Below are positions 5,576 through 37,088 of a stretch of 64,000 nucleotides of DNA, piece after piece. A model generated the notes under the pieces. The model worked only from the letters and a program-made list of their open reading frames with translations. It did no database searches and was not told the origin of the DNA. Both the position numbers and the translations under genes were made by a program. How positions within the stretch are numbered: the stretch's first letter is position 1; the number at the start of each line of letters is the position of its first letter. Source of the DNA: Candidatus Omnitrophota bacterium (GTDB lineage Bacteria > Omnitrophota > Gorgyraeia > Zapsychrales > Fredricksoniimonadaceae); the NCBI GenBank assembly GCA_028865345.1, contig JAGWKL010000007.1, forward strand, positions 6,089-70,088, read 5' to 3'.

Positions 5576-5835
5576 TGGCTCGAGTTCCCGTTAGTAATGC
5601 TTCCGTGATAAACCGCGGACATCGGCAAAAAATAATAATCGTCTTGAGAGTTCAACTCATTCGACGGATCCAGGCTTTTGGTCAGTGATATGTCCTGGGC
5701 CACGCGCCGGTTGGCCAGATCCAGCCCCGCCCAGCGGAAAACCATCACCAGGCCGTAAACTATGAACATGATCACCACCACCGCGAAGGTGAATTCAATG
5801 GTCGACTGAGCTTTGGTGTCCCGTACGTTCATCAA
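5572..5835 (-). CDS. TadE-like pseudopilin (87 aa)
   Basis: N-terminus TKAQSTIEFTFAVVVIMFIVYGLV is a TadE/TadF-like prepilin-like hydrophobic segment with conserved E. 4-nt overlaps with both neighbours. Confidence 0.5.
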   Translation of the reverse strand: MMNVRDTKAQSTIEFTFAVVVIMFIVYGLVMVFRWAGLDLANRRVAQDISLTKSLDPSNELNSQDDYYFLPMSAVYHGSITNGNSSQ

Positions 5836-7817
5836 TTCCCTACCTTGTACCGCCCTGATGTGTTTGTCGCCCAGAAATGCCCGCGCAAGTCTTCGATGCG
5901 GCTGCGGACAAAAATCTTGTTCTGGGAAAGATCATAACATGTCGAGGCAATGTTGGTCTGAGAACTAAAACAGTTGTTGGTTATTCCGTCGACACAAACT
6001 TCCACAGGGTTGGGGGTTTTTCCGTCATTGCCCACCGTGGCAAGCGGCGTCGTTCCGTTGCAAAACCGCCCGGTATTATTGCTCAGCTGGATGACCCGCT
6101 GTATCAGGTCGATCGAGTCCTTTTTGTTTTGGCTGCGCACAAACTGGTCGGTTTCAGGGTTATACATTTTCCCATCCTGGATCAACAAATACGTCCCCCC
6201 GCGGTTATCGGTGGCATTGGAGCTGTTCTTGGTAAAGGTAAACACCTGGGCGTTGGCCTGCAAACCGGGCTGCGGACCGCAGGAATTGGCGTCCCAAGCC
6301 CCGTCAATGTCTCCACCATCCGGATCTTCATAAGAAACCACCGGATAGCCGTTTGAGTCCGTGGAAAGATTATAAATGGTGACTTCCTTCAGCCTTCCGT
6401 CTATATCATAGGTCGGATAAACATGGTTGGAACTGCTTAGCCCGATCTCTGCCGCCGAGGTCCCTGCCGTGGCAGCCCATTGCCAGGCAACGTAGGCGCG
6501 CATGCAACTGCCGGGAGGATTGCATCCCGGATTGGGGAATTGATTTATCACGCCCGCCACCGATGTCGATGTTGCTCCATTGCTCCCATAGACCCCCATG
6601 CGCAAAAGATCATACTGCATGACCCCATTGATATTGGTGGATGCTCCAAGGCCGTCGGTGGTGGGATTGCCCCAATAATCAAGCAAAGGCATGTCCGTGG
6701 ACAGTTCTTTATTCATACAAGCTGAAGTGCCGTGCGCAGTACAAGTGGGGGCCGAAGTGCTGAAGGTCAAATTCGAAGAATTGGCCGACCCTCCCGCCCC
6801 GCCGGGATTGGCCACCAGGGTATAAAACAATTTGTATTGCCTGCTGCCCTGCTCGATAATGCCCTCGATCGCCGCTAAATATCCCACAGCCTGTTGCGCA
6901 GTGAGGTGAAATACATTTTCATAAAGCCCTTCAAACGTCGTCCACGGCGTTTGATTCCATGATGCGTTGACCGTCGCTTGAGAGGTAGCTTCATCGCACT
7001 TGCTGGTTGTCGTAGGTGAAATGACATGGGCATTGGCCAGTTCCGTGAAAATAGTACAGGCATTGTTGGCCTCTTGCAGCTCTCTTCCTGCCGTGGTGGT
7101 CGCGGTTATCGGCGCTACCGGAGGATCGTTGGTAACAAGCGCGCTTTCCTTAAGAATGCTCTGGCCTCCCCACTCCCTTTGATTGCGGCAGGTCTGGTTC
7201 ATTTTGCACTGGGCCTCGGCTTTTTGCTGGCAGTCCTGCGGATTTCCGCCGGCCGTCAGGCAATCTTCCTGCTCCTGAGCGGAAGATATCGGCTGGCTGT
7301 TTTTATCGCACATAGCGGTACCGCCCTGGCCCGGCGGATAAATGGTTTTCCCGGCAACATAAGAAGCCATGGTAAACGGGAAATGCTGCCCGTCGATATA
7401 CACATCCATGATGGGCAAACTATTGTCGATATCGGAGGGACTATTGTTATCGATGGGATAAAGAAGGTTATAGGAAAAGGTTCCCGAACCGGAGACCATG
7501 AATGGTGTGCGGTCCAAAGCCCCGTATTTGCCGAAACCGGGAACAAGTCTGTCTTCTACAAAAAGCACCGAGGCGCTGTTATGCGCGGTGACCTGCGGGC
7601 TCATGCCGGGATTGGCCTTGGAATCGTTCCACGAAGCCAGCATGGCCATGCGCATGGCCTTAAAACTGATGTCCTGCTGATAGCCGTTGCTCACAGCAGT
7701 GCGGATGATCGTCCCCAAAATAAAAATGAGGATGGCCCCGAACACGGCAAGCTCGGTGACGGCCTGTCCCGCCGCGGGTGCGGGGCCAGACGCTTTTTGA
7801 AGGTCTCGCTTGGACAT
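5832..7817 (-). CDS. TadG/TadE-like large pseudopilin (~662 aa)
   Basis: Track ORF 5832..7886. Start taken at MSKRDLQ (ATG at 7815-7817, ATGA overlap with the stop of the upstream pilin gene, AGGTAGGG RBS). N-terminus AGQAVTELAVFGAILIFILG is a TadE-like motif. Confidence 0.5.
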   Translation of the reverse strand: MSKRDLQKASGPAPAAGQAVTELAVFGAILIFILGTIIRTAVSNGYQQDISFKAMRMAMLASWNDSKANPGMSPQVTAHNSASVLFVEDRLVPGFGKYGALDRTPFMVSGSGTFSYNLLYPIDNNSPSDIDNSLPIMDVYIDGQHFPFTMASYVAGKTIYPPGQGGTAMCDKNSQPISSAQEQEDCLTAGGNPQDCQQKAEAQCKMNQTCRNQREWGGQSILKESALVTNDPPVAPITATTTAGRELQEANNACTIFTELANAHVISPTTTSKCDEATSQATVNASWNQTPWTTFEGLYENVFHLTAQQAVGYLAAIEGIIEQGSRQYKLFYTLVANPGGAGGSANSSNLTFSTSAPTCTAHGTSACMNKELSTDMPLLDYWGNPTTDGLGASTNINGVMQYDLLRMGVYGSNGATSTSVAGVINQFPNPGCNPPGSCMRAYVAWQWAATAGTSAAEIGLSSSNHVYPTYDIDGRLKEVTIYNLSTDSNGYPVVSYEDPDGGDIDGAWDANSCGPQPGLQANAQVFTFTKNSSNATDNRGGTYLLIQDGKMYNPETDQFVRSQNKKDSIDLIQRVIQLSNNTGRFCNGTTPLATVGNDGKTPNPVEVCVDGITNNCFSSQTNIASTCYDLSQNKIFVRSRIEDLRGHFWATNTSGRYKVGN

Positions 7818-8134
7818 CAGTTCCCTACCTGTGTAGTGCCCGACTTCGTTTCCAAAGTATTCGACGTATCGATCCGGCTTGTCCATTCGCCGTAGGCGCT
7901 GTTATAGCTGCCCGGAGCGACCTGGACAATGGACGTCGCATTGGACTGTGTCGCGTACAGTATATTGGAATTGACCCATTGAGGGTCATACTGGCCGCCT
8001 ATCTCATCTGACGATGATTTCCAGCGGCCCTGAATGCCCCTTTTGACATAGTCCTTCATGGCCACCAGCACTCCGAGGATGATGATCATGATCACCGTGT
8101 ATTCCAGAATTGTCTGTCCTCGTATGTTTCGCAT
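7817..8134 (-). CDS. flp: Flp-type pilin paralog 8 (105 aa)
   Basis: MRNIRG|QTILEYTVIMIIILGVLVAM: Flp prepilin motif G/XXXXEY followed by a hydrophobic helix. Confidence 0.65.
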   Translation of the reverse strand: MRNIRGQTILEYTVIMIIILGVLVAMKDYVKRGIQGRWKSSSDEIGGQYDPQWVNSNILYATQSNATSIVQVAPGSYNSAYGEWTSRIDTSNTLETKSGTTQVGN

Positions 8135-8149
8135 AGGCCTTGGTCCTTA

Positions 8150-8506
8150 TTATTGTGGTGAAAACCCTCCGTTGGTAATGGTGTTGGTCATTGTCACAGA
8201 AGCCTCACTATAACCCGTCGTCGCCATGAAATGAGTGACGCCGCTGCCATTAATATACCCCGTTTCCGCGTTCCAATCGCCGGTGGTGGCGCCCATCTGC
8301 GTATTCGATGCCAGCATAAATCCTGTCTGGGGATTGGTAAAATCCTGGTCGGCGTTCTGCTGACTGCCCACCTGGTCCGCCGTCACCTTGACCAGGCTCT
8401 GCACCCCGCGCTTGATGCCCGTGCCCATATAATAGAGCGCCACCATCACCAGGCTGACGAGGATGGCGTATTCTACTATTGTCTGTGCATTGCGGGTAAA
8501 AACCAT
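8150..8506 (-). CDS. flp: Flp-type pilin paralog 7 (118 aa), Ala at -1
   Basis: MVFTRNA|QTIVEYAILVSLVMVALYY: Flp motif with Ala instead of Gly at -1. Confidence 0.6.
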   Translation of the reverse strand: MVFTRNAQTIVEYAILVSLVMVALYYMGTGIKRGVQSLVKVTADQVGSQQNADQDFTNPQTGFMLASNTQMGATTGDWNAETGYINGSGVTHFMATTGYSEASVTMTNTITNGGFSPQ

Positions 8507-8515
8507 TCAGTCCTT

Positions 8516-8935
8516 TCATGTCGCACAACCGGTCCCGTCACTGCAACACGGCGGCGGATTGGAACTGCTGCATACCGGAGGTAATTGGTGGCTGATGGAG
8601 GATATGTTGCTTGTGTCATTCACGGAACTGATATAGACCGCTCCCAGTTCCCCTGCGCTGCCGTTTGTTATTCCTTGATGATTGTCTGAATTCCGTTGCA
8701 CATCCGAGAAGGTCTGCATGTAATACGGTTCATATCCCCAGGAAACCCCGTTGGAAGCGGCCTGGCAATTGACATCGCAGGCATTGGCCGCCATCTCGAT
8801 CGCAAAGTTCCTGGCATCATGGATCCGCGCCTCAAAGGCCCTCCTCACCAGCACGGTCATAGCTGTCAGGGCCGCAACCACTATGAAGAAAACCATGACA
8901 TGCTCTGCCAAAATCGCTTGACCTTTGTCATTCAT
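8516..8935 (-). CDS. flp: Flp-type pilin paralog 6 (~139 aa) with Cys-rich C-terminus
   Basis: Track ORF 8516..8962 begins at a TTG. Better start is ATG at 8935 (MNDKG|QAILAEH) with AAGGTGAGG RBS. Motif has H instead of Y. C-terminus PPVCSSSNPPPCCSDGTGCAT. Shares ARIHDA and YEPYYMQ motifs with the pilin at 9613..9981. Confidence 0.55.
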   Translation of the reverse strand: MNDKGQAILAEHVMVFFIVVAALTAMTVLVRRAFEARIHDARNFAIEMAANACDVNCQAASNGVSWGYEPYYMQTFSDVQRNSDNHQGITNGSAGELGAVYISSVNDTSNISSISHQLPPVCSSSNPPPCCSDGTGCAT

Positions 8936-8968
8936 GCCCCGCCTCACCTTCTCCAAAGACAAACGGCC

Positions 8969-9166
8969 TCACATCCCATTCGCCGCATTTTCCTGCAAGT
9001 AGGTGGCTGCGTTGAGCATCCCTTGGGTCGTCTGGTTGAACACGCTGTTCAAGCTGCTTTGAAAAGAACCTGTCCCCTTGCCTGTCGTGAACAGAACGAC
9101 CACCACGATCACGGCCGTGACCAGCAGGATGTATTCCACCAGGCTCTGACCTTTACGTGCGCGCAT
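8969..9166 (-). CDS. flp: Flp-type pilin paralog 5 (65 aa)
   Basis: MRARKG|QSLVEYILLVTAVIVVVVLF, canonical Flp motif; AGAGGA RBS. Confidence 0.7.
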   Translation of the reverse strand: MRARKGQSLVEYILLVTAVIVVVVLFTTGKGTGSFQSSLNSVFNQTTQGMLNAATYLQENAANGM

Positions 9167-9197
9167 GCGTTTGTCCTCTATTGACGGCCTATATCAA

Positions 9198-9223
9198 CGA
9201 GGGGGGAAGAAAATCCCCCCCTC
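9198..9223 (-). promoter_or_regulatory. Intra-operon GC hairpin between flp4 and flp5
   Basis: Perfect inverted repeat CGAGGGGGG-AAGAAAAT-CCCCCCTCG (9-bp G/C stem) in the 70-nt gap between the pilin genes at 9236..9574 and 8969..9166. Confidence 0.4.
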
Positions 9224-9235
9224 GTTTGGACTCTG

Positions 9236-9574
9236 TTAGGCGGCGGTGTTCCCTCCCCAGAATTCCTGCTGGGTGTTAAGGATGACCGAGTTCTCCGTCG
9301 TGTTGGTCGATTCACCCGACCCCAAGATGGAAGTCGAGGAATTTCCTGCGTTGAACACTTCTTCTGTATCGCTGGAAGTGTTGACGATCTTGATCACGTT
9401 GGTATTGCCGTCAGAATACTGGTCGCCGATATCGTCGGCGGCGCTCTTCAGGCGCCCCTGCACGCCGCGTTTGATATAGACCTGAAGGGTCAGCAAAGCG
9501 CCGACCACAACGACGATCATTACCGAGTATTCCAGGAAACTTTGACCGCGTTTTTGGTTAAGATATTGCAACAT
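9236..9574 (-). CDS. flp: Flp-type pilin paralog 4 (112 aa)
   Basis: MLQYLNQKRG|QSFLEYSVMIVVVVGALL; GGAGG RBS upstream. Confidence 0.7.
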   Translation of the reverse strand: MLQYLNQKRGQSFLEYSVMIVVVVGALLTLQVYIKRGVQGRLKSAADDIGDQYSDGNTNVIKIVNTSSDTEEVFNAGNSSTSILGSGESTNTTENSVILNTQQEFWGGNTAA

Positions 9575-9612
9575 AGGATTCCTCCTTAAAGATATATCGT
9601 TGAAGTCTTAGG

Positions 9613-9981
9613 TTATTCAGACTGTTGATTCCCGCTGTCATAATTACTGTACGTTTGATTCTCAGACCCGGTCCTGATCCTGTTGTTGGCGGAATCCTGT
9701 GCGACCAAGTCGTGCCCTAAGCGTTTAGCACTAACGCTGTTGCTGGATACGTCATAATTGCTCTGCATGTAATATGGCTCATACTGCGTGTCATTGCCCA
9801 GACCGATATCCGAGTTGCCGGTGGCATTGGCCATATACGTTGCTGCATCGTGGATACGGGCTTGTATGGCGCGCTGGGCATAGGTCTGCATGGCAATGAT
9901 GCCTGCGACCACCAGGGCGATCAAAAGCGCGTATTCCGCGAAGTGTTGTCCTTTTTTATTCTTAAGGAAATTTCTCAACAT
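9613..9981 (-). CDS. flp: Flp-type pilin paralog 3 (122 aa)
   Basis: MLRNFLKNKKG|QHFAEYALLIALVVAGII; GGAGG RBS. Shares ARIHDA..YEPYYMQ motifs with paralog 6. Confidence 0.7.
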   Translation of the reverse strand: MLRNFLKNKKGQHFAEYALLIALVVAGIIAMQTYAQRAIQARIHDAATYMANATGNSDIGLGNDTQYEPYYMQSNYDVSSNSVSAKRLGHDLVAQDSANNRIRTGSENQTYSNYDSGNQQSE

Positions 9982-10027
9982 AAGTTCCTCCTATATTAGT
10001 TCGTAGAGATTTTGTTTAAGCTCCTCG

Positions 10028-10276
10028 CTATTGAGTCGGATTGACACTATAGCCAGAGGGAGCGCCACTGTCGGTACTGGTGTATGCGCCATGTGAACCG
10101 GCATACTGTGACGTTTCACTGTTCATTTCCGTCACCGCCGCGTTGTAGGTGCTGTTGAGCGTGTTCTGGAACGGACCGTTTTTGCTGGTCACAAAGGCCA
10201 CAATAACGATAAGGACCGCGGTCACAACCAGGATGTATTCCACCGTGATTTGACCTCTTTTGTTCTTTATATGCAT
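10028..10276 (-). CDS. flp: Flp-type pilin paralog 2 (~82 aa)
   Basis: Track ORF 10028..10288 starts MEGIM, but GGAGGGGATTATG shows those codons are the RBS. True start is MHIKNKRG|QITVEY at 10276. Confidence 0.7.
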   Translation of the reverse strand: MHIKNKRGQITVEYILVVTAVLIVIVAFVTSKNGPFQNTLNSTYNAAVTEMNSETSQYAGSHGAYTSTDSGAPSGYSVNPTQ

Positions 10277-10348
10277 AATCCCCTCCAAAATTCCCGTACT
10301 GCATCCTCCACGTAAATTAAACGCCGTGTAAAGGAACAGGGAATATAG

Positions 10349-10504
10349 TTAATTCAACGAATCCTCAGTAATCATCTTCTGTTGGGCTTGCACGGAACGG
10401 AACACGTAGGTGCTCAACAGCGCCAAGGCTGCTGAGATCAAGGCCACGACGATCGCGTATTCGATCAAGTTTTGTGCTTTGATACCGTTTAATTTTCGGA
10501 TCAT
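10349..10504 (-). CDS. flp: Flp-type pilin paralog 1 (51 aa), not in ORF track
   Basis: Manually translated: MIRKLNGIKA|QNLIEYAIVVALISAALALLSTYVFRSVQAQQKMITEDSLN. 156 nt ATG..TAA, below the 60-aa cutoff of the track. Canonical-size Flp with Ala at -1. First gene of the pilin array. Confidence 0.6.
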   Translation of the reverse strand: MIRKLNGIKAQNLIEYAIVVALISAALALLSTYVFRSVQAQQKMITEDSLN

Positions 10505-10548
10505 CGCCCCTTACCTTTACGTGCCAGAAGATCAATTAGACCTTCCCC

Positions 10549-10567
10549 CTGCTTGTTGTTCAAGCAG
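10549..10567 (-). promoter_or_regulatory. Inverted repeat in 5' leader of first flp gene
   Basis: CTGCTTG-TTGTT-CAAGCAG (7-bp arms) about 45 nt upstream of the flp1 ATG. Confidence 0.3.
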
Positions 10568-10606
10568 GAGCGAGGAAAAACTAAAACACTAACTGGTCTT
10601 TCATCT

Positions 10607-10630
10607 ATGTAAAAGCCCCTAAGGGCTGTC
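10607..10630 (-). terminator. Putative rho-independent terminator after the 373-aa HTH gene
   Basis: On the minus strand, AGCCC-TTAG-GGGCT stem followed by TTTTACAT. Short 5-bp stem. Confidence 0.35.
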
Positions 10631-10733
10631 GGTACAATTGATGTTTACTTTGGTAGAAGTATGCCATATATAATAAAGCCTGTCAACCCCGCGGAAACAA
10701 AAATAACCCGCTCCCCGATTCGGCGACTAAAGC

Positions 10734-11855
10734 CTAATCTTTTAAAATTTCGACCTTAACCAGCCTATTTTGGTCATCATGCAGATACATCGCATTTAAT
10801 TTCTCTGCGGCTTCATTGAGCATGGTAATATTCTCATAACTATTTGTCGTTAATATGTTTATTATATTAATTTCACTGTTGACCTTGTCGAATCCTTTCA
10901 ACTTTAATATATTATCCATAACATCATCGTTTACATTATGTTGTGTAAAAAAAATGTCTTTTGCTCTCTCTGAAACATTCTTTTTATAGCTCTCCACAAA
11001 TACAATATCTTTTAACATAAAAACTCTTTTACACTCCACAATTTCATCGAAATATGCTATAACATTGTCTTTGTAATCCACTATCAAAATTTTTGTAATT
11101 TTGAGCCCGGCTTGAGCATCCATGCAAGATTTAAAAAGCATTTCATCCGAAACTCTATGAACTACCAGCGGCCGGATATTATTAATAAGCCCGTCCACTG
11201 CTTCCATGATGCAACGTTCAATGGGGAGCGGCAGATCAATAAAGACCTCCTTGTTGTTTTCCAAAACAACCTTGATCCCTTTACAGTATGTCAGGCAATA
11301 TTCCCAATCCGTTCCCTTGACGTTCTCTTCTGAGAAAATTCCTAAATCCCAAAGTGCCGCCCTTAAAAAAACCCTTCCGGCCCCGTCGTATTCCGCAGAA
11401 ATCTCAAAACTTTCGGGCTTGATTTGCCGTTCTTCTGTAATCGTCGGGGCTTTTTCTTCTTCCGTCGATCCGGGGCCGGAGGACGGAGGCTCTTTATGAA
11501 CGTTTAGATCCTGGCCGCCCGCCTCCATTTCCTGAGAAACGCCTTTTGCCGAATCCGGCAGTACGCTGACTTCAGGAATAATTGTTTCCGGCAGCAATTT
11601 GACTTGGGAAAGGCTGGCCTGAATCTGCCTCTTCTTCTCTTGAGGTATTTCAAACTTATTTTTTGGCTTACGGCCGCGAGGCGTCATGATGCCCGCCTCT
11701 TTGAGCACATCATGGACCGACGATTTGGAAAGTTTAAGTCCGAACTTTTGAGAGGCTGATTCAGCTAATTGGCGGCAGGAAGCAAGAGGGTTGGCTTGTC
11801 GCTGGTTTATGATGAATCCGACAACCTCTTCCTTTAACTTATAGGTAACACCCAT
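10734..11855 (-). CDS. Hypothetical protein with N-terminal HTH-like domain (~373 aa), AT-rich
   Basis: Track ORF 10734..11951. The first 32 codons are AT-junk overlapping the XRE gene, so start taken at MGVTYKLKEEVVGFIINQRQANPLASCRQLAE (HTH-like, ~70 aa). Then an acidic low-complexity linker and an unrecognised ~230-aa C-terminal domain. GC content far below surrounding genes. Confidence 0.4.
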   Translation of the reverse strand: MGVTYKLKEEVVGFIINQRQANPLASCRQLAESASQKFGLKLSKSSVHDVLKEAGIMTPRGRKPKNKFEIPQEKKRQIQASLSQVKLLPETIIPEVSVLPDSAKGVSQEMEAGGQDLNVHKEPPSSGPGSTEEEKAPTITEERQIKPESFEISAEYDGAGRVFLRAALWDLGIFSEENVKGTDWEYCLTYCKGIKVVLENNKEVFIDLPLPIERCIMEAVDGLINNIRPLVVHRVSDEMLFKSCMDAQAGLKITKILIVDYKDNVIAYFDEIVECKRVFMLKDIVFVESYKKNVSERAKDIFFTQHNVNDDVMDNILKLKGFDKVNSEINIINILTTNSYENITMLNEAAEKLNAMYLHDDQNRLVKVEILKD

Positions 11856-11938
11856 AAAATTCCGTTCATAATAATGTCCAGTCTGGACATTATTATAACA
11901 AAAAAATATGGAGAAACAATTTAAAAAAAGGAATGATT

Positions 11939-12217
11939 TTATATTTCCCACATAACAATATTTTCAGAACTACTTTTTGCTTCTTTGTTCTGTTTGTGGT
12001 TTGATTTGGATCGCAGAAGATTTACAGGAGTGGTTTTGAGGGCCTTGGCGAGTTTTTCAATATTCAGCAGGGTAATATTTATTTCCGCCCGCTCTATCAT
12101 TCCGATGTAATTCCGATGAAGGTCCGCAAGTTCGGCAAGTTTTTCCTGAGAAATCCCTTGCCTGCGCCGCTCCATCCGTATCTTCTTGCCGAAGCTTATA
12201 AGTAATCTTTTATTCAT
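11939..12217 (-). CDS. XRE-family helix-turn-helix transcriptional regulator (92 aa)
   Basis: RRRQGISQEKLAELADLHRNYIGMIERAEINITLLNIEKLAKAL is a classic Cro/C1-type HTH. AT-rich, co-located with the 373-aa HTH gene. Confidence 0.6.
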   Translation of the reverse strand: MNKRLLISFGKKIRMERRRQGISQEKLAELADLHRNYIGMIERAEINITLLNIEKLAKALKTTPVNLLRSKSNHKQNKEAKSSSENIVMWEI

Positions 12218-12525: not shown

Positions 12526-12861
12526 TCATAGCCGGACCTGGTCACCGATCCGTGTTTGAGAAGCAATGATGGTCCCCGCCGGCAATTCGATGGCGTAGGA
12601 TGCCCGGAAGAATACCGGCGACAGGCGGAAAGGTTTGATCCCCTCGCAAAGCCCCACCACCTTGTCCTTCCGGTCGCAAAAGATCACATCAATAGGAAAT
12701 TTCATAAAAAACATATGGATGGATTCGCAATGGGGAATGACCAGGGCGTGATTCAGGGGGAGTTGGGTCCTTCCAAGCAATCCCTTCGAACGCTGCCAGA
12801 AATTCCGGGCGGTTTCGACGGAGGAGGCAATAACGGTGTCGCGGGTTGCGTTACAGATCAT
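12526..12861 (-). CDS. DUF192 (COG1430) family protein (111 aa)
   Basis: Sequence family resemblance only. 4-nt overlap with the upstream CpaE-CpaF gene suggests translational coupling. Confidence 0.45.
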   Translation of the reverse strand: MICNATRDTVIASSVETARNFWQRSKGLLGRTQLPLNHALVIPHCESIHMFFMKFPIDVIFCDRKDKVVGLCEGIKPFRLSPVFFRASYAIELPAGTIIASQTRIGDQVRL

Positions 12862-15023: not shown

Positions 15024-15140
15024 AATGAATTTTTATTGTACCATATTTTTTGATTTTGTCGCAGATAAAAAAGAGGTCGCTTTGCCTTCCCCCTAACTCG
15101 GGAGGTAGCGTGTCCCTTTGATGAAATTCTAATGGCAAAA

Positions 15141-15300
15141 TTCTTTCTCGGCGTCGGCTCGCAGGGGGGCAAATTTCTTTTGAACATCAGCTTGCACAGG
15201 GGTAAATTCTTTTTGGACATCAGCCTGCAAAGGGGCGAATTCTTTCTCGGCGTCGGCCCTCAGGGGAATAAATTCTTTCTCAACATCTGCCGCCTGCAGT
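15141..15300. repeat. 33-bp tandem repeat (~4.8 copies) forming 11-aa repeats in ORFs on both strands
   Basis: Units TTCTTTCTCGGCGTCGGC..CAGGGG..AAA alternate between A/B subtypes (A-B-B-A-B). Minus frame gives ADxEKEFxPLx repeats (track ORF 15129..15611). Plus frame gives GKFFLxISLxR repeats (track ORF 15132..15476, ATG start, GC3 ~74% versus ~45% on the minus frame). Confidence 0.6.
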
Positions 15301-15429
15301 TCACGGCATTGGGGCCCTTTGGCCTTATCACAGGGGCTTTGTGCGGAAGCGCCCGAAGAAATCTGTGCCCCGCAAGGGCAAGGGACGCAAAGGATCAACC
15401 AGAAAATTACTGTAGTCAGGTACAGGTAA

Positions 15430-17235
15430 TTACGAAGCAAAGCCCTTCTCCGCCGGAGATTGACCGTCAGGGTTAAAAACAATAGGAACCGTAAATTCAA
15501 GTTCTCGCTGGTCCATCCCCGGGCTAAAGGCGGCAAAAGGAGCGGCTGATTTAGCGGCCTGCATGGCGTCCTGATCCAGGACATTGCTTCCCGAAGACTG
15601 GGCCACGTCAATAGAATCCAGGGAGCCGTCTTTAAGGATATGCAGCTTCAATTTGACCGTGCCTCCCAGCTCGGCGCCGCCCACCGGCCGGGGATAAATG
15701 AGGGTCCTTGAAATCTTTTCCTGGACCATGCGTGCATACGCTGTCGCGGCCGGGAGCCCTTTCAAATTCTCAACGGGTAGGGGTGCCGGCGCTGAATAGG
15801 CCGCGGTGTATTGCGGCGCCAATGGAAAAGAAGGAGAATACGTCTCCGGATTTTCCGAGGGAGCGGTAGGAGCCGGCTTGGCCGGCCAATCGGAAACGAT
15901 GGGCGCGTGTTCATACCTCGAAACTATTTCATTCCAGGAACTGCGCTCCTCGGACGTCGGCATCACCAGTTCTTTTTGCGCGTATTTCGTTTGCGTCAGC
16001 ACCGTCGGCGTCAAAATAATGACCATTTCCGTATTGGCATCCGCGGGCTCGCTTTTGTTTCTGAAAAGCCCCCCTAAAAGCGGAATTTTAGATAAAAACG
16101 GCACATCGGTCTCATTCACGCTGTCTTCATATTTGATCAGCCCCGCCAGGGCAATGGTCTGCTTGTTGTCCATCAGCAGGTCCGTCGAAGCTGTCCGGGT
16201 GACAAAGGCCACGTTGCCCCCATTGCTGGATATGGGAGTGGCTGAATCCACGTCCCGGATGTCCACGTTTAACTGCACATCTATTTTTCCGTCTTGAATG
16301 GTCGGAGTGACCGACAGGTTGACGCCGTATTGGGCATAGGTCGTGTTATTGGTCAGGGTGCTGCCAGTGGTGCTCACTGTTGTGGATTGGATGGGGATCT
16401 CGCCGCCTACCAGGAAACTGGCAGGCTTGCCGCTTTCCACCACCAACCGCGGCTTGGAAATCAGCCTGGCCTTGCCTTCCTTGACCAAGGCATTCACCGT
16501 GGCTTCCAGCGACGTAGTGCGCATGAAGTGCCCTATCTTGAACAAATCCTTGAACTTGTCTCCCGTGGGAAGGGTTTCTCCATAGTTAAGGTTCACCTGC
16601 CCGCTGTTGCTTGTCCCGGTTGAGCCCGTTGTGCCCGAAGAAGAAGTCCCCCACGATATCCCCAATTCTCTTTCCAGGGTCACGTTGATCTCCACGATCT
16701 GCATGTCCACCTGGATCAATTCGTTGTTCTTTTCTTTCTCGACCAGATTCAACAAATTATCGCTATACGGCGTCAGGACGTCCGCCATCCGGTTTTTGTT
16801 GTCTTCAGACAAGGAGCCTGTGAGCACCACCTTGCCTATATCGAGATTTATATCTTCGGAAACCCCTTTGACGCCGGCTTCCTTCAGGAGCTCCTGCACA
16901 AGGGCCTTGAGGGCGTTGAGGTCCTGGGCGGCCACGCGAACCTTGACGCTGTGTTTGCCGCCCGCATCCCAGAAAAACAGGACCGTTGAGCCGGCTTTCT
17001 TGGCTATCAGGGAAACTTTATCGTTCTGAACGTCTGAAATGTCCGCCACCGAGGGGTCGGTCACCGAGACCCGGGTCAACCCGCTGGCAGGGACCGACTG
17101 GATGTCGCCCACCACCATGTCAATAACGTCTGCCGACTGCATATCATCGTCGGCAGATAACGGCGGCATATATGCCACTGATACCGCAAGGCCAAACGCG
17201 ACGATAAAAATTTTCCGTAAAAGGTTGGATTTCAT
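15430..17235 (-). CDS. cpaC: CpaC/RcpA-type secretin with C-terminal Pro-rich linker and TonB_C-like domain (601 aa)
   Basis: N-terminal pilus-formation domain. Secretin C-terminus (DVPFLSKIPLLGGLFRNK..TEMVIILTPTVL) ends near residue 415. Then PAKPAPTAPSENPETYSPSFPLAPQ linker and YARMVQEKISRTLIYPRPVGGAELGGTVKLKLHILKDGSLDSIDVAQSSGSNVLDQDAMQAAKSAAPFAAFSP resembling a TonB C-terminal domain. Confidence 0.7.
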   Translation of the reverse strand: MKSNLLRKIFIVAFGLAVSVAYMPPLSADDDMQSADVIDMVVGDIQSVPASGLTRVSVTDPSVADISDVQNDKVSLIAKKAGSTVLFFWDAGGKHSVKVRVAAQDLNALKALVQELLKEAGVKGVSEDINLDIGKVVLTGSLSEDNKNRMADVLTPYSDNLLNLVEKEKNNELIQVDMQIVEINVTLERELGISWGTSSSGTTGSTGTSNSGQVNLNYGETLPTGDKFKDLFKIGHFMRTTSLEATVNALVKEGKARLISKPRLVVESGKPASFLVGGEIPIQSTTVSTTGSTLTNNTTYAQYGVNLSVTPTIQDGKIDVQLNVDIRDVDSATPISSNGGNVAFVTRTASTDLLMDNKQTIALAGLIKYEDSVNETDVPFLSKIPLLGGLFRNKSEPADANTEMVIILTPTVLTQTKYAQKELVMPTSEERSSWNEIVSRYEHAPIVSDWPAKPAPTAPSENPETYSPSFPLAPQYTAAYSAPAPLPVENLKGLPAATAYARMVQEKISRTLIYPRPVGGAELGGTVKLKLHILKDGSLDSIDVAQSSGSNVLDQDAMQAAKSAAPFAAFSPGMDQRELEFTVPIVFNPDGQSPAEKGFAS

Positions 17236-17240
17236 TGAAA

Positions 17241-18089
17241 TTAAAGTTCCCTGCCGCCTCTAAAAATCTGGATCATGGGCTTGCTTTCTTCCGGCTTGGC
17301 TGTGGGCACTTCATCCGGGTTCTCAAGATCTAGCCCCTGGTTTTTCAGGACATAGTCCGCCAGGGTCTTCCATGTGTCTGCTTTGACCATTCGATGTTCC
17401 ATATCATCAGGTGAACGCAACGCCAGGTCCAGCTTGCCGTTTTTATCCGCAAATTCCAAAAGTCCTGCTTCCTGAGGACTCACCGCAAAAGTGATTTTCA
17501 GGGAATTGGCCGCCTGCTGCTTATCATAGTCGCCCAAGTCTTCCTCATTGGTATTAACGGCCAGGACCTGCAGGTCCTGGAAAACCATCGCCGTCACGGT
17601 TTGCTTATTGGCATATTGCGACGGGACGCTCATCTCGCCGATCACATCCACAAAATCCCCCGGATTGATCATGCCCCCCACGGCGGCGAGCGAATCGATC
17701 TTCACCGTCACGGCGCGCATGCCCACCGGCGTCCTTAAGGCCAGCGACGGCTTGTGGGCTTCTTTTTTGACACTCACCTGCGTCTGCGGCCGCATCTTAG
17801 ATATTTGCTGCTCGGAAATCTTCAGCGCGGCGATTTGTGTCTTTAATTGCTGTTCCTCCTGGCTTTTTTCCCGTTGCATTTCCTGCGCCAGTTGGGCCAT
17901 TTGCTGCTGGTCTTGCTGCTGGATCGCGGAGACCATTTCCTTTTCTTTGGAGGCGTACTGTTCAGCCAGGGCCTGGGTCTTGTTGTTAATCGCAGTTTGG
18001 ACGTAATTGCTGGCCAAAAACACCGCCACCAGCCCTAAGGCCAAAGCGCCGAGGATAATGAAAAGTTGCTTTTTGTTTTCGAAAGGCAA
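17241..18089 (-). CDS. cpaB: Flp pilus assembly protein CpaB/RcpC (282 aa)
   Basis: N-terminal TM (LFIILGALALGLVAVFLA), Gln-rich coiled-coil, SAF-like segment GMRAVTVKIDSLAAVGGMINPGDFVDVIG. Confidence 0.65.
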   Translation of the reverse strand: MPFENKKQLFIILGALALGLVAVFLASNYVQTAINNKTQALAEQYASKEKEMVSAIQQQDQQQMAQLAQEMQREKSQEEQQLKTQIAALKISEQQISKMRPQTQVSVKKEAHKPSLALRTPVGMRAVTVKIDSLAAVGGMINPGDFVDVIGEMSVPSQYANKQTVTAMVFQDLQVLAVNTNEEDLGDYDKQQAANSLKITFAVSPQEAGLLEFADKNGKLDLALRSPDDMEHRMVKADTWKTLADYVLKNQGLDLENPDEVPTAKPEESKPMIQIFRGGREL

Positions 18090-18116: not shown

Positions 18117-19139
18117 TTACCGGCCCGTCTGGCTTGGCTGACCGACAACCTGGTCAATAAGCGTTTTGTTGTACTCGGGTTTATACTTTTCAGCCAGTTC
18201 GTTAAGGTGCTTTAACATCACCTCTTGTTGTTTTTGCTGGGTCAAGAAATAAATGATCTGGTCTTTATAATCGGTAAAAGGTTTCAGGACGCCTCCCGTC
18301 TTGGAATCGACCTTAACGATGTAATAGCCTTGCGGCCCCTTGAAAACGCCGCTGACATCCCCGGGGCCCAAATTGGCAATGGCTGTTTGCATGGCTTCAA
18401 AGGGCGCTTCTCCCGTGACGAACGGCTTTATTTTTCCCCCGACAGCCGCGTCGGACGCCTTGGATTGGGACCGGGCAAGCTGCGCAAAATCGCCGCCCTG
18501 CAGCACTTGAACCAAAATAGTTTTGGCCGTGGCTTCATCCGGGGCCACGATCTCACTGACATTCCATGTAACGGGCGTGGTCAAGTCAGATTTGTGGGCA
18601 TCATAATATGCCCTGGCATCGGATTCGGTGGCGGCCACATTCCTGGTCAGGCGGCTGACCACTTCCTGGACCATCAGCGTCCTGCGGAAATCCCTGACGG
18701 AATCCTTGATGGACTGGCTGTCACCGGCCCCGGAATCCTGCGCTTCCCGGACCAAAAGTTCCTGACGTACAAGCTGGTCCAAAACATAACTTCTGACCTT
18801 GGCATCGCTTTCCTTAAAACTTTGTTTCATGCCGGCAAGCTGCTGTTTTAAAAGGTCCAAGCGGTCATTGAATTCCTGCTGGGTCAATGTCCAATCGCCG
18901 ATGCGCACCAAAGCGTCGCCGGGTAAAGGTTCTTGGGCAACGGGCGTGCTCTTGGCAACAACTACAGGGGAAACCGGAGTGACGGGAGCGGCGGGAACGA
19001 CAGGAGCCTGTTGTTGGGAAGCTTCCTGCTTTTTACTGCCCAGCCCCAACAAATTCTGTATCTGGTCGCAACCGGTCAAAAAGACCAGCCCGGCTATCAA
19101 ACACAGAGGCCCGTACATTTTAATTGCGGGTCTTTTCAT
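18117..19139 (-). CDS. PpiC/parvulin-type peptidyl-prolyl isomerase lipoprotein (SurA/PrsA-like, 340 aa)
   Basis: Lipobox LVFLTGC. Parvulin-like GPQGYYIVKVDSK and an N-terminal chaperone-like region. First gene of the minus-strand block. Confidence 0.55.
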   Translation of the reverse strand: MKRPAIKMYGPLCLIAGLVFLTGCDQIQNLLGLGSKKQEASQQQAPVVPAAPVTPVSPVVVAKSTPVAQEPLPGDALVRIGDWTLTQQEFNDRLDLLKQQLAGMKQSFKESDAKVRSYVLDQLVRQELLVREAQDSGAGDSQSIKDSVRDFRRTLMVQEVVSRLTRNVAATESDARAYYDAHKSDLTTPVTWNVSEIVAPDEATAKTILVQVLQGGDFAQLARSQSKASDAAVGGKIKPFVTGEAPFEAMQTAIANLGPGDVSGVFKGPQGYYIVKVDSKTGGVLKPFTDYKDQIIYFLTQQKQQEVMLKHLNELAEKYKPEYNKTLIDQVVGQPSQTGR

Positions 19140-21975: not shown

Positions 21976-22053
21976 TGGCGACCCCAACGGGATTTGAACC
22001 CGTGCTGCGAGCTTGAAAAGCTCGTGTCCTGACCAGGCTAGACGATGGGGTCG
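21976..22053 (-). tRNA. tRNA-Glu: tRNA-Glu (anticodon TTC), CCA encoded
   Basis: Cloverleaf folded by hand: acceptor CGACCCC/GGGGTCG, anticodon loop TTTTCAA, T-loop TTCAAAT. Confidence 0.75.
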
Positions 22054-27315: not shown

Positions 27316-28410
27316 TTAGAGTCTCATCGGGAGGGCTAAATACAAATACTCTTTGAGCCGCAGCACGCAGGGCTTGTCGGGTCCCAAAAACTCCATCGGC
27401 ACATATTCATCATTGATATTTTTAAGTACGTCGATAAAAAATTGCGGGTTGAAGCCCACGATCAATTCCTGGTGGCCGTATTCAACGGACACTTCTTCCC
27501 GTGATTCACCCACATCCGGCGTTATTTTGGAAATCACCAGCTTGTCCTTGAAAAGTTCGAATTTAATGGCCTGGAAATCGGGAGTGGAAAGCAGGTTAGC
27601 CCGCCGTATCGCGGCCAAAAGATCCTGGGTCCTGACCTTGGCTTTGGTATTGATCTCCTTGGGGATGACCTGCTTATAATTAGGGAATTCCCCTTCGATA
27701 ACACGGGTGGCGATCAAAACACCGTCGATATCGAACAAAACTTGGGTCGCGCCGTAAGTAATGCTGACCTGACCTTCTTCTTTCAGGTTCCGGTTGATTT
27801 CATTGACGGCTTTGATGGGAACAATAATATGAAAATCTTTGGATGTGGGATGCACCAATTTCTTTTCCATTTTGGCCAGGCGCCTGCCGTCGGTGGCCAC
27901 CATGCGTACCAAGTCCCCCGCCACTTCCAGCAAAAGACCGTTCAACACATACCGCGATTCCTCGTACGAAACCGCAAAATGCGTCAACCCGATCATTTCT
28001 TTAAGATCTTTTTGATTGATCAAAACAGCGTCTTTATCTTTAAATTCCGGAAATTTCGGAAATTCCTCTTTAGGCAGGCCGTTAAGTTTAAACCGGCAAT
28101 TAAGACCCTCGATATCGATTTGATTGTTCTTGCGCGCCGTGATCACCACCTCCCCGTTCGGTAATTCACGAACAATATCGCCCAGGCGCTTGGCAGGAAT
28201 GGTGATGGCGCCTTGTTCATAAACATGCACAGGCAATTCACAGGATATTCCGATATCCAAATCCGTAGTATTTAATTTTAATAAATTCTCTTTTGTTTCT
28301 AAAAGCATATTAGATAATATCGGTAAAGTTGCTTTAGGTGAAACAATATTACTTACCGTTGCAATCGCAGCCTGGAGTTCTTCTTTATTCGTCTTGATTT
28401 TCATATGCAC
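27316..28410 (-). CDS. dnaN: DNA polymerase III beta sliding clamp
   Basis: 364 aa, three-domain clamp pattern, synteny dnaA-dnaN. Confidence 0.9.
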   Translation of the reverse strand: MHMKIKTNKEELQAAIATVSNIVSPKATLPILSNMLLETKENLLKLNTTDLDIGISCELPVHVYEQGAITIPAKRLGDIVRELPNGEVVITARKNNQIDIEGLNCRFKLNGLPKEEFPKFPEFKDKDAVLINQKDLKEMIGLTHFAVSYEESRYVLNGLLLEVAGDLVRMVATDGRRLAKMEKKLVHPTSKDFHIIVPIKAVNEINRNLKEEGQVSITYGATQVLFDIDGVLIATRVIEGEFPNYKQVIPKEINTKAKVRTQDLLAAIRRANLLSTPDFQAIKFELFKDKLVISKITPDVGESREEVSVEYGHQELIVGFNPQFFIDVLKNINDEYVPMEFLGPDKPCVLRLKEYLYLALPMRL

Positions 28411-28576
28411 AACCCTCTATATAGTGCTGTTCGTTTAAAGTTCGCAAACTTAGAAGTAATCATATTAGTTGTTGTGGATAAGTTGGACCAGAAACAAAAT
28501 ATCTAATAATTTCAACAACTTACAATTATTAACACCTGTGGACAACTTTGGGATAATACAAATTATTTATCCACAA
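28411..28576. promoter_or_regulatory. DnaA-box cluster (oriC candidate, dnaA-dnaN spacer)
   Basis: AT-rich. TGTGGATAA (~28473), TGTGGACAA (~28537), TTATCCACA (~28567) are perfect or 1-mismatch DnaA boxes. Confidence 0.45.
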
Positions 28577-29923
28577 TTATGCCGCAAGAATAGCACTTAA
28601 ATGATCAATCCCCTTTTTAACTTCCGGGGCCAAGATTAAACTTTTTTCCATTTTTTTATAAGCATGCAAAACAGTGGTGTGATCTTTGCCGCCAAAAGCA
28701 GCACCGATCTCCGGCAAGGAGTGTGTTGTCAATTTGCGCGTCAGGTACATGGCCACCTGCCGAGGCAAGACTACATTTTTATTGCGTTTTTTATTTTTTA
28801 AATCCGCCAGGGGGATATTGTAGTAAGCGGCCACTTCTTTCTGCACCATGTCCACGCTGATCGTTTTGATCGTTTCTTTGACCATGTCCTTCAACACCTG
28901 TTTGGCCACATTCAAAGAAATCATTTTATCTTCCAGCAACGCGTAAGCGACCACCCTGATCAAGGCCCCTTCCAGCTCGCGGATATTGGTTTTGATTTCC
29001 TGGGCTATAAATAATACCACATCATCAGGGACCGTGACAGACTCAAGCTCCAATTTTTTGCGTAAAATCGCGACCCTGGTTTCATAATCCGGAGGCTGGA
29101 TATCCGTGACCAGGCCCCAGGCAAAACGCGATACCAGGCGTTCTTCCAGGTTGGAAATCTCCTTGGGGGGCCGGTCGGAACAAATGATGATTTGTTTATG
29201 ATGGTCATGCAGGGTGTTGAATGTGTGGAAAAATTCTTCCTGGGTGGACATTTTTCCGGCGATAAAATGAATGTCGTCGATCAAAAGAATGTCGACATTG
29301 CGGTATTTCTGGCGGAAACTTTCAGAAGAATGGTGCCGGATGGAGTTGATCAGTTCGTTGGTGAACTGTTCCGACGACAAATAACAGATCTTAAGGCCGG
29401 GGTTCTTTTTTTGGGCCCCATGGGAGATGGCCTGCAACAGGTGTGTTTTGCCCAGGCCCACGGGGCCGTAAATAAAAAACGGATTGTAGGCCTTGGCCGG
29501 GTTCTCCGCCACGGCCTGGGCCGCCGCAAAGGCAAAACGGTTGCTGTTGCCCACCACGAAATTTTCGAAAAGGAACCGCGGATTTATGTGCAGGTCCGCA
29601 GTCGCAGGCGCGAAAGATTTTTCGATCAGGGTGAGTTTTTGCTGGGTGTTCTTGTTCAGAAGCTGGGAGTTGACGGCAAATTCAATGTTGATCCCCTGCC
29701 CTGCTTCGGTGCGCAGACAGCGTTCAATAATGGCGCGGTAACGCTCGTCGATCCAATTCTTAAAATACTCATCCGGCGCCTGGATTGTCAAGGTGCCGGG
29801 GTTGTTTTCACAAATTTTCAGATGGGAGAACCACGTGTCGTAGGAAGTTTCCCCTATAGCGGCCTTAATGGGATTTTGGGCCTTTTGCCAGACGTCGATC
29901 AGGGTCATTGTGGACGGGGTCAC
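28577..29923 (-). CDS. dnaA: Chromosomal replication initiator DnaA
   Basis: GPVGLGKTHLLQAI Walker A, sensor motifs, C-terminal DNA-binding domain (AFGGKDHTTVLHAYKK). Confidence 0.95.
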   Translation of the reverse strand: MTPSTMTLIDVWQKAQNPIKAAIGETSYDTWFSHLKICENNPGTLTIQAPDEYFKNWIDERYRAIIERCLRTEAGQGINIEFAVNSQLLNKNTQQKLTLIEKSFAPATADLHINPRFLFENFVVGNSNRFAFAAAQAVAENPAKAYNPFFIYGPVGLGKTHLLQAISHGAQKKNPGLKICYLSSEQFTNELINSIRHHSSESFRQKYRNVDILLIDDIHFIAGKMSTQEEFFHTFNTLHDHHKQIIICSDRPPKEISNLEERLVSRFAWGLVTDIQPPDYETRVAILRKKLELESVTVPDDVVLFIAQEIKTNIRELEGALIRVVAYALLEDKMISLNVAKQVLKDMVKETIKTISVDMVQKEVAAYYNIPLADLKNKKRNKNVVLPRQVAMYLTRKLTTHSLPEIGAAFGGKDHTTVLHAYKKMEKSLILAPEVKKGIDHLSAILAA

Positions 29924-30255
29924 AGGTTATTCACAGCTGTGGATTAAAGTTAAAAACAGCCACGCTCGTGGCTGTATTAGACTTTTGTCAAGTTTCGATG
30001 GGCATTATAACAAAGCCGTGTTTGATTGCAACCGTTTTTTCTTAAGCGCAAGTGCCGGAAGGCGTTTTTACCGTCAAAAAACATATTCCCTGTTGTTTTG
30101 TTTGGCGGAGGGTTGACTCTTTTTGTTGACTTGATTCATTCCTGTGTTATAATCTCCGAACTAATATTCCCCTGTCCCTTCGATATCGTAAGGCGGTGTT
30201 GTTGCGAACGGGGTTTTGGCACAGTTCCATCAAATATTTCAGAAAGTAAAGTTTA
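29924..30255. promoter_or_regulatory. dnaA upstream region with DnaA boxes (second oriC/autoregulation candidate)
   Basis: TTATTCACA (29927-35) and TGTGGATTA (29938-46), each one mismatch from consensus. Divergent to rpmH. Confidence 0.35.
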
Positions 30256-30393
30256 ATGAAGAAACATCTAAAAACACCGACCAATATTGTTGGGAAAAAA
30301 AGACACGGATTCCGTAAGCGCATGGCGACTTCCGACGGTAGAAAAGTGCTCAGCCGTCGACGCGCCAAAGGCCGCCGTAAACTTATCCCCTAA
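30256..30393 (+). CDS. rpmH: 50S ribosomal protein L34 (45 aa, not in ORF track)
   Basis: [45 protein letters not shown] hand-translated; hallmark L34 sequence. Confidence 0.85.
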
Positions 30394-30401
30394 AGATCTC
30401 T

Positions 30402-30623
30402 TTGGCTATCATGGTTAAAAATTTTCTGATTTCAGGCATCAAAGCCTATCAGTGTATAAGCCGTGCTTTTCCATTTAGGAATTGCCGGTTTTACCCCTCA
30501 TGTTCCCAATACGCCATCGAGGCCATCGAGAGCTTCGGCGTCTGGCAGGGAATGAAAAAAGCAGTCCTTCGCCTTTTGCGTTGCTCTCCTGCGACAGACG
30601 GCGGATATGACCCTGTAAGGTAA
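30402..30623 (+). CDS. yidD: Membrane protein insertion efficiency factor YidD
   Basis: YQCISRAFPFRNCRFYPSCSQYAIEAIESFG is the YidD signature. Directly follows rpmH with no rnpA in between. Confidence 0.8.
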   Translation: MAIMVKNFLISGIKAYQCISRAFPFRNCRFYPSCSQYAIEAIESFGVWQGMKKAVLRLLRCSPATDGGYDPVR

Positions 30624-30626
30624 ATC

Positions 30627-32395: not shown

Positions 32396-32435
32396 TGCCA
32401 GTTTCACGTGGAACTTATTTGGAAGGACAGGCTGT

Positions 32436-33224: not shown

Positions 33225-33286
33225 AAATGTGACAATTGGCCACCATGTTTTTGGCAGTCAAATGGTAACGTTTTTGGAGATTCAGA

Positions 33287-37013: not shown

Positions 37014-37088
37014 GGCGTGGTAGCCAAGTGGTAAGGCAGTGGTCTGCAAAACCACTATTCAGCGGTTCGATTCCGCTCCACGCCTCCA
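37014..37088 (+). tRNA. tRNA-Cys: tRNA-Cys (GCA), CCA encoded
   Basis: Hand-folded: acceptor GGCGTGG/CCACGCC, anticodon loop CTGCAAA. Confidence 0.75.

Follow-up and report, generated by a model that had tools for sequence, protein, structure and literature searches.

Introduction

In described tight adherence (Tad) pilus loci, which follow the gene order cpaB-cpaC-cpaD-cpaE-cpaF, the slot between the secretin and TadZ/CpaE belongs to RcpB/CpaD/CtpE, a protein that probably forms a complex with the secretin and is absent from some functional Tad systems (PMC10934763). Other secretin partners include Pseudomonas aeruginosa TadD, a tetratricopeptide repeat (TPR) lipoprotein that serves as the pilotin and binds the last four residues of the secretin RcpA (PMC10499894), and the small proteins of the BfpG type, which are reported to join a type IVb pilus secretin to form a channel complex (PMC12531336). 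Here, we report an analysis of a Tad locus from a Candidatus Omnitrophota bacterium in which the RcpB/CpaD/CtpE slot holds a small gene of a different kind, with a 33-bp tandem repeat array as its 3' half and a start that overlaps the end of the secretin gene. The stretch of DNA that was analyzed, hereafter the window, comprises 64,000 nucleotides of contig JAGWKL010000007.1 (assembly GCA_028865345.1), and all coordinates refer to positions within it.

Omnitrophota are believed to rely on pili for attachment or for interactions with a host, and little is understood of the Tad accessory proteins encoded at the RcpB/CpaD slot, which vary among lineages. The TPR lipoproteins known as pilotins, about 25 kDa in size, are needed, or presumed to be needed, for secretin assembly. 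A first-pass annotation of the window, made from the DNA letters alone, had noticed 11-residue repeats encoded on both strands of the array and had suggested either a small lipoprotein at the TadD/pilotin position or a repeat protein encoded antisense to the operon. The apparent coding on both strands can now be settled as ordinary single-strand coding, in which the G+C content of the first codon position in the sense frame (GC1) masquerades as third-position G+C content (GC3) in the antisense frame. The result is the definition of a small family of proteins that lacked annotation and that is associated with the secretin of Tad pili in Omnitrophota. The family is narrow in scope, its members falling into about eight sequence clusters in a library of 1.84 billion representative proteins, and the function suggested for it is a proposal; a repeat protein apparently coupled to a secretin lends itself to co-expression and cryo-electron microscopy.

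A small gene overlapping the Tad secretin gene

The 33-bp array constitutes the 3' half of a protein-coding gene that runs on the minus strand from 15440 to 15129, and the array lies, as the first-pass annotation had placed it, between the secretin gene and the cpaE-cpaF fusion gene (Table 1). The gene starts with TTG (15440-15438) and ends with TAG (15131-15129). It had been observed correctly that the minus strand offers no ATG after the secretin stop codon, only non-ATG starts, and TTG had rightly been named among these; the proposed position downstream of the secretin stop codon (15432-15430) was wrong, however, the TTG being located 8 nt upstream of it. A GGAG sequence (15451-15448), which is part of a Shine-Dalgarno motif inside the last codons of the secretin gene, is separated from the TTG by 7 nt, and GCGGAGAAAGTCA or a near variant precedes the TTG in all eight orthologous genes. 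The overlap between the two genes amounts to 11 nt in the window and 14 nt in the orthologues. Within it, the same bases encode the conserved secretin tail (AEKVIASY-stop) and the N-terminus of the small protein (MLR[IT][NK]), so that each sequence constrains the other. Since the last codons of the secretin gene contain the start codon as well as the ribosome-binding site, we infer that translation of the small gene is coupled to that of the secretin gene.

The product, which contains for example the peptide ADAEKEFAPLQADVQK, is identical to GenBank entries MDE2009525.1 and MDE2231646.1, annotated as 'hypothetical protein' in Candidatus Omnitrophica/Omnitrophota metagenome-assembled genomes (MAGs). 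The gene itself has therefore been called already; the family of proteins with five hendecads to which it belongs is undescribed and narrowly distributed.

A word-indexed protein search with the 103-amino acid protein returned only its own cluster. The database search for the repeat peptide that had been proposed as a check was successful when carried out as an exhaustive phmmer search of the 1.84 billion representative proteins, which identified seven small homologues (87-114 amino acids) with the same architecture: an MLR-type N-terminus, a signal sequence ending in AFA/Q, AQA/Q or VKA/Q (the slash marks the cleavage site), a polar linker and units of the QVDAQKEFPxL type. Most of the 73 phmmer hits were unrelated repeat proteins, either eukaryote-like or of a 'RADxxKRFxEL' type with a C-terminal transmembrane segment, and were excluded upon reading of the sequences. 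All seven homologues are encoded directly after a secretin-TonB_C gene and directly before cpaE-cpaF (split in locus L090), and PpiC, RcpC and DUF192 neighbors are shared in the orthologous loci.

In the protein library, the family amounts to about eight clusters at 50% identity. A degenerate DNA pattern spanning two repeats matched two Joint Genome Institute metagenome contigs, both from the sample series of homologue P0007, and had no matches in viral contigs. Neither the library nor the scans with DNA patterns yielded a family member outside the slot between the secretin and cpaE/F. These proteins thus constitute a previously undescribed small family that is restricted to a subclade of Omnitrophota Tad loci and is always encoded between secretin-TonB_C and cpaE/F.

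The coding strand

The coding strand is the minus strand, in the orientation of the operon. The plus-strand frame noted in the first pass does exist, with its ATG and its 47-nt overlap with the 3' end of the secretin gene, but it is not a gene. The proposal that this frame (15132-15476, with GKFFLxISLxR repeats) represents a real or additional antisense gene draws on its being open for 114 codons from an ATG and on a GC3 of 0.61-0.71, which is nearer to the mean of the window genes (0.63) than the sense GC3. Comparison with the orthologues leaves this proposal with next to no probability. The in-register antisense frame has no stops in the window species and near-identical strains, but it is interrupted in all seven orthologues, by 1, 3, 4, 4, 4, 4 and 6 stops.

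The pattern of conservation leads to the same conclusion. In a gapless alignment of the repeat region from seven orthologues, the pairwise nucleotide identity averages 0.63 at sense codon position 1, 0.75 at position 2 and 0.45 at position 3. This measure was used in place of the classical ratio of non-synonymous to synonymous substitution rates (dN/dS) between orthologues, which is unsuitable because synonymous sites are saturated at 31-49% identity. The ranking of the positions (2 > 1 > 3) indicates coding in the sense frame. Plus-strand coding would predict the opposite, with the lowest conservation at sense position 1, onto which position 3 of the antisense frame falls; in fact, sense position 1 is more conserved than sense position 3.

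The base composition that had seemed to favor the plus strand has a simple explanation. The GC3 values previously given as ~45% (minus) and ~74% (plus) are corrected to 0.47 and 0.71 for the repeat part and to 0.505 and 0.614 for the whole open reading frames (ORFs), and the argument that the plus-strand value is the typical one does not hold up. In the repeat part, sense GC1, GC2 and GC3 are 0.71, 0.33 and 0.47; the antisense GC3 of 0.71 is merely the sense GC1, which originates from GAx, GCx, GTx and CAx codons. Likewise, the antisense frame is open because it is in register with the sense codons and because the sense strand contains no TTA, CTA or TCA codons. No gene is called on the plus strand here in any retrieved locus, and the plus-strand product, which was not itself searched against protein databases, has no Pfam or NCBIfam match. 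The antisense ORF is, accordingly, a non-functional by-product of sense codon usage.

Two observations count against assignment to the minus strand. The sense GC3 of 0.505 is about 1.5 standard deviations below that of the long ORFs in the window (0.63 +/- 0.085), which is low, but not aberrant. Two near-identical MAGs encode variants that differ by one or two substitutions (A33V, K89E), both of them non-synonymous, although one or two changes among three MAGs are too few to interpret. The same five units are present in these variants, so the suggested comparison between strains revealed no change in copy number among the three near-identical MAGs.

The alternative that the array is a non-coding tandem-repeat spacer between the secretin gene and cpaEF finds some support in the nearest loci that lack the gene (L001-L003), where only short spacers are present and which thus mark the segment as lineage-specific. 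Its probability is nonetheless negligible: an ORF, a start codon, a ribosome-binding site, a signal peptide and five units are all conserved at 31-49% protein identity, the third-position wobble pattern contradicts it, and no Rfam match was found at the array. The proposed check of frame-specific conservation has come out in favor of the minus frame and contradicts a non-coding spacer. The minus-strand protein rests on the identical GenBank call, the seven syntenic orthologues, the conserved start and ribosome-binding site, and the codon-position pattern.

The repeat array and the architecture of the protein

The presence of a 33-bp tandem array was confirmed by several approaches. Tandem Repeats Finder reported a period of 33, with 2.4 copies and 82% matches, at 15166-15245, and a repeat search of the window detected a 53-nt block in four copies, in register and spaced by 33 nt, at 15139-15290. 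In the register of the minus-strand protein, five complete units extend from 15296 to 15132. The identity of the array at a lag of 33 is 0.67, compared to a maximum of 0.47 over 2000 shuffles at any lag from 10 to 80. This is the strongest lag-33 signal in the window (background 0.28 +/- 0.045), and the top five 165-nt segments by lag-33 identity across the 64 kb all fall within the array. The units are indeed of two subtypes but do not alternate, as had been thought; in minus-strand order, they are arranged as mixed-A-B-B-A, with 27/33 matches between units 2 and 5 and 26/33 between units 3 and 4.

The units encode five repeats of 11 residues, in order QAADVEKEFIP, LRADAEKEFAP, LQADVQKEFTP, VQADVQKKFAP and LRADAEKEFCH, with a spacing of exactly 11 between the Phe residues of the five consecutive units. 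The consensus of the family is LQVDA[EQ]KEFPN, and five phase-locked units are present in every orthologue, with a one-residue insertion in that of L091. In a tally anchored on Phe, which is invariant (47/47), the repeats contain Asp in 35/47, Lys in 32/47 and Ala in 28/47 cases; given that 9 of the 47 F-anchored positions are non-repeat N-terminal segments, these counts slightly understate the conservation in true units. The two positions after Phe are occupied by the turn formers Pro, Gly, Asn or Ser.

In all seven sequences tested, the hydrophobic moment peaks at 162-164 degrees, with values of 0.27-0.36 vs 0.21-0.25 at 98 degrees. Periodicity near 163 degrees corresponds to the beta-type alternation L-Q-V-D-A-Q, and that expected of an 11/3 helix (98 degrees) is weaker. 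The AlphaFold model of the monomer, obtained with the 8-sequence alignment, has a predicted local distance difference test score (pLDDT) of 57 and a predicted template modeling score (pTM) of 0.19, and consists of a helix in the signal region, followed by five helices of one turn each over xEKE. The mature protein (~78 amino acids, ~8 kDa) probably comprises five short amphipathic elements that are separated by turns and remain flexible until bound.

Of the previous comparison of the ADxEKEFxPLx repeats to the amphipathic helices of apolipoproteins and late embryogenesis abundant (LEA) proteins, the 11-residue periodicity stands and the likeness to a helix does not, considering the peak near 163 degrees and the lack of a Pfam match. 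Tandem 11-residue units, some punctuated by proline and rich in charged residues, are common to this protein and the 11-mers of apolipoproteins, LEA proteins and synucleins, whereas the beta-like periodicity, the absence of a Pfam match and an array of only 55 residues set it apart.

The only recurring match at relaxed thresholds was to the hendecad region of the phiX174 H pilot protein. It includes PDB entry 4jpn (E = 0.006) and Pfam family PF04687 (Microvir_H), for which the best score was 21.0 bits (P0007) against a cut-off of 22.7 bits, with 11.4 bits for the window protein; Microvir_H matches at E <= 10 were obtained for four of the eight members, in the repeat region only. Such repeated similarity below the threshold, together with the shared 11-residue periodicity and the motif QKE[LIF]xx[ML]QxDx, could be taken to suggest that the units join into an uninterrupted alpha-helical coiled coil or tube, like that of H (PDB 4JPN/4JPP), as a periplasmic conduit or collar. 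We consider this very unlikely, because turns recur in every unit, with Pro and/or Gly/Asn after Phe, AlphaFold predicts one-turn helices only and no long helix, and the hydrophobic moment peaks at ~163 and not at ~98 degrees. In addition, the family motif has no match in viral contigs, and matching of repeats to repeats inflates the scores. In contrast to H, the window protein is cellular, predicted to be exported via Sec, and encoded in a Tad locus; convergence or composition is the most likely source of the resemblance.

The N-terminal segment (MLRNYLYLTTVIFWLILCVPCPCGA) has the basic n-region and the hydrophobic core of a signal peptide. The 'WLILC' segment, which had been regarded as resembling a lipobox, is shown by the family alignment to be the hydrophobic core. 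As read from the alignment, the features of a Sec/signal peptidase I substrate are all present, namely, a basic residue at the N-terminus, a 12-17-residue hydrophobic core and, at -3/-1, small residues; the small-residue cleavage region of the window protein (CGA/Q) aligns with the AFA/Q, LAQA/Q and VKA/Q sites of the orthologues. The canonical lipobox L-[AS]-[GA]-C is found in none of the eight members, and five of the eight have no Cys after the signal peptide, which removes the ground for a lipoprotein. We infer that the window protein is a Sec/signal peptidase I protein, with a predicted cleavage site, and not a lipoprotein.

The linker that follows is variable in length and sequence across the orthologues. 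Linker cysteines and a C-terminal Cys are common to the window protein (EFCH) and P0033 (LFCNK), for which disulfide stapling is conceivable; it is not a trait of the family. A pilin identity was considered as well and dismissed, given that the small protein lacks the class III signal (G/xxxE[YF]) with ensuing hydrophobic helix of type IV and Flp pilins, and that eight pilin-like genes with such signals are present elsewhere in the locus.

A candidate accessory protein of the secretin

The small gene occupies the position of RcpB/CpaD/CtpE in the window and in the seven orthologous loci; this is not, as had been stated, the TadD/pilotin position (PMC10934763), TadD being a distinct protein with its gene at another place (PMC10499894). 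Similarly to RcpB/CpaD/CtpE, the small protein is lineage-variable, apparently exported, and dispensable in some Tad systems. It differs from them in showing no sequence similarity, in being a predicted non-lipoprotein with five 11-residue repeats, and in the overlap of its start with the secretin stop. None of the eight members matched a CpaD/RcpB profile at E <= 10 or E <= 1. The window protein is about half the size of CpaD. The gene fills the RcpB/CpaD slot without homology to RcpB/CpaD, and a mechanism can be proposed along the following lines.

Judging from sequence features and gene position, the small protein is probably a lineage-specific periplasmic accessory protein that is coupled to the Tad secretin and takes the RcpB/CpaD slot. 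Translation from the TTG, via the ribosome-binding site inside the last codons of the secretin gene, would result in co-production with the secretin. The pre-protein would be exported via Sec and cleaved by signal peptidase I, thus reaching the periplasm. Flexible on its own, the protein would become ordered on a repeated surface, presented by neighboring secretin protomers, by their periplasmic domains or by its own oligomer, and would act in the periplasm as an accessory subunit of the secretin module, assisting in the assembly, stability or gating of the secretin. That the equivalent units always number five is suggestive of self-assembly or of such multivalent attachment to a repeated surface. 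The secretin of this clade itself combines a TonB_C domain with the conserved AEKVIASY tail (NKLxSGGKxPAEKVIASY in its longer form), which is dual-coded with the start of the small gene. A more specific version, which we offer tentatively and regard as rather unlikely in its details, is that of a novel type of partner for the secretin, a flexible, non-lipoprotein periplasmic 'staple' replacing RcpB/CpaD or a pilotin, the units of which would each engage a protomer or periplasmic domain of the 13-14-mer secretin, or would form a collar beneath it.

Several findings speak against an accessory role at the secretin. The window protein has no Pfam or NCBIfam match at E <= 0.01 and no homology to RcpB/CpaD, and no tertiary fold is predicted for the monomer at the low pLDDT and pTM given above. 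When TonB_C and the mature small protein were modeled as a single chain with AlphaFold, tethered by the linker of the small protein and with an unpaired 20-row alignment, TonB_C folded at a pLDDT of ~90, and the repeats stayed unstructured (45-57), with no confident docking on TonB_C; binding by strand addition gains no support from this test, which is a weak one. The small gene also diverges faster than its neighbors, with 31-49% identity between the window protein and its orthologues, compared to 54-72% for the secretin and 70-86% for CpaEF (80-86% in most); by the latter two measures, the loci with the gene cluster closely around the window. Finally, loci L001-L003 encode the same secretin-TonB_C fusion without the small gene (spacers of 32, 116 and -1 nt), so the gene is dispensable for the secretin-TonB_C type in general; relative to the window, these loci show at most 73% identity in CpaEF and at most 38% in the secretin.

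Much faster evolution than that of the neighbors (31-49% vs 54-86%), absence from sister loci that share the type of secretin, lack of docking to TonB_C and apparent disorder of the protein alone would also befit a Sec-exported periplasmic or released protein with a job unrelated to secretin assembly that is merely co-transcribed with the Tad genes. Examples would be an envelope-stress or peptidoglycan-associated protein, a surface or matrix factor, a pilus cargo or an adhesion aid. We view this as a serious possibility, if still an unlikely one: the position is strictly fixed, the dual-coding overlap with the secretin stop is present in 8/8 loci, and the searches of the protein library and the DNA pattern scans never placed the family outside its slot.

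An accessory role at the secretin is thus preferred, and the pilotin version of such a role appears improbable. A small outer-membrane lipoprotein that replaces TadD as the secretin pilotin could be imagined from the adjacency and apparent coupling of the gene to that of the secretin, from the cysteines near the end of the signal peptide in the window protein and P0033, and from the scan of the neighboring ORFs, among which no TadD-like TPR protein was recognized. However, no member contains a canonical lipobox, five of the eight combine the absence of a mature Cys with signal peptidase I sites of the AxA/Q type, and there is no sign of a TPR fold, either as a Pfam match in any of the eight members or in the AlphaFold model, which contains only one-turn helices. 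AlphaFold showed no docking to the C-terminal part of the secretin, in contrast to the binding of the last four residues of RcpA by TadD (PMC10499894), and the PpiC/SurA-like lipoprotein of the locus (VFLTGC) is the better chaperone candidate. What the small protein shares with the TadD/PilF pilotins is that it is a secretin-linked envelope protein, and the secretin C-terminus, the pilotin target, adjoins the start of the small gene; what separates it from them is the lack of a lipobox, TPR and predicted docking, and a mature size of ~8 kDa. With the BfpG-type partners, which belong to a different pilus class, there is only an analogy, and no sequence relation is expected.

Neighboring genes and transcription context

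On the minus strand, the genes are arranged in the order PpiC/SurA-like, CpaB/RcpC, secretin-TonB_C, small ORF, CpaE-CpaF and DUF192 (Table 1). The PpiC/SurA-like gene is syntenic where the contigs reach this far (L081-L085, L087, L088 and L091), and its product is a possible candidate for a secretin chaperone that substitutes for a pilotin. The Pfam matches of the secretin are to Secretin (7e-39), T2SS-T3SS_pil_N (2e-11) and TonB_C (5e-13). The secretin-TonB_C fusion is found in all orthologous loci as well as in the more distant L001-L003, and TonB_C, which is confidently folded in the AlphaFold model described above, looks like a peptidoglycan- or partner-binding module that replaces the usual S-domain. 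The CpaE-CpaF fusion has full-length matches in dozens of loci, spread over many phyla. Synteny extends to the DUF192 gene in those orthologous loci that are long enough to include it.

Table 1. Features of the small gene and its surroundings in the window
Feature	Position	Strand	Evidence
Small gene, 103 codons + stop; hendecad-repeat, predicted exported protein	15129-15440	-	ORF, GenBank match, orthologues
Shine-Dalgarno GGAGA inside last codons of secretin gene	15447-15451	-	sequence, conserved motif in orthologues
Dual-coding overlap, 11 nt (secretin tail and stop codon / first codons of small gene)	15430-15440	-	sequence, gene tables
Predicted signal peptide, ~aa 1-25	15366-15440	-	family alignment, AlphaFold helix at residues 3-18
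Polar low-complexity linker, aa 26-48, with C37 and C45	15297-15365	-	family alignment; pLDDT <50 at residues 28-49
Five 33-bp units (five 11-residue repeats)	15132-15296	-	repeat searches, translation
Antisense ORF, 114 aa, ATG; not a gene	15132-15476	+	stops in orthologues, codon-position conservation
PpiC/SurA-like gene opening the locus, canonical lipobox VFLTGC	18117-19139	-	domain search, sequence
CpaB/RcpC	17241-18089	-	domain search
Tad secretin (RcpA/CpaC type), Pro/Ala-rich linker, C-terminal TonB_C at aa 514-588 (15472-15696)	15430-17235	-	Pfam, NCBIfam, AlphaFold
CpaE/TadZ-CpaF/TadA fusion ATPase, 721 aa	12858-15023	-	Pfam CbiA/ParA and T2SSE; NCBIfam TadA family
DUF192 gene, 4-nt overlap with cpaEF stop	12526-12861	-	domain search
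Putative promoter-like GCGACA-16-TG-TACAAT in 105-nt spacer after small gene	15035-15062	-	sequence scan
Eight consecutive small genes with class III (Flp/TadE-like) signals	7817-10504	-	sequence

The promoter-like site in the spacer ends ~11 nt before the cpaEF ATG (15023), and the motif GCGACA-16-TGGTAnAAT recurs in most of the orthologous spacers (L083, L087, L088, L090, L091 and L093). Because this putative promoter of cpaEF lies downstream of the small gene, the latter appears to close the ppiC-cpaB-secretin transcription unit rather than to open the ATPase unit. An intrinsic terminator after the small gene is unsupported, with a fold z-score of -0.44 and the sole terminator-like match inside the gene. 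Given this arrangement and the absence of a Shine-Dalgarno sequence at the start of cpaEF, the cpaEF mRNA may be leaderless or nearly so.

No T2SSF (TadB/TadC) platform gene was recognized near the ATPase gene. The pilin-like genes are followed by genes for a 684-amino acid TadG-like protein and for unannotated proteins of 913 and 986 amino acids, a region to which 5832-7886 (minus strand) is also assigned. Low G+C content characterizes 10001-12000 (0.42) and 28001-34000 (0.385-0.45), as opposed to ~0.53 elsewhere, and these stretches may be acquired DNA. The first of them contains a 405-amino acid gene with weak matches to transposase-type helix-turn-helix (HTH) domains next to a small HTH_3 regulator. 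The window further contains a 6S RNA (52 bits) as well as five tRNA genes, three of which form a cluster, at the coordinates 47341-47506 (+), 21979-22052 (-), 37014-37291 (+) and 54040-54110 (+).

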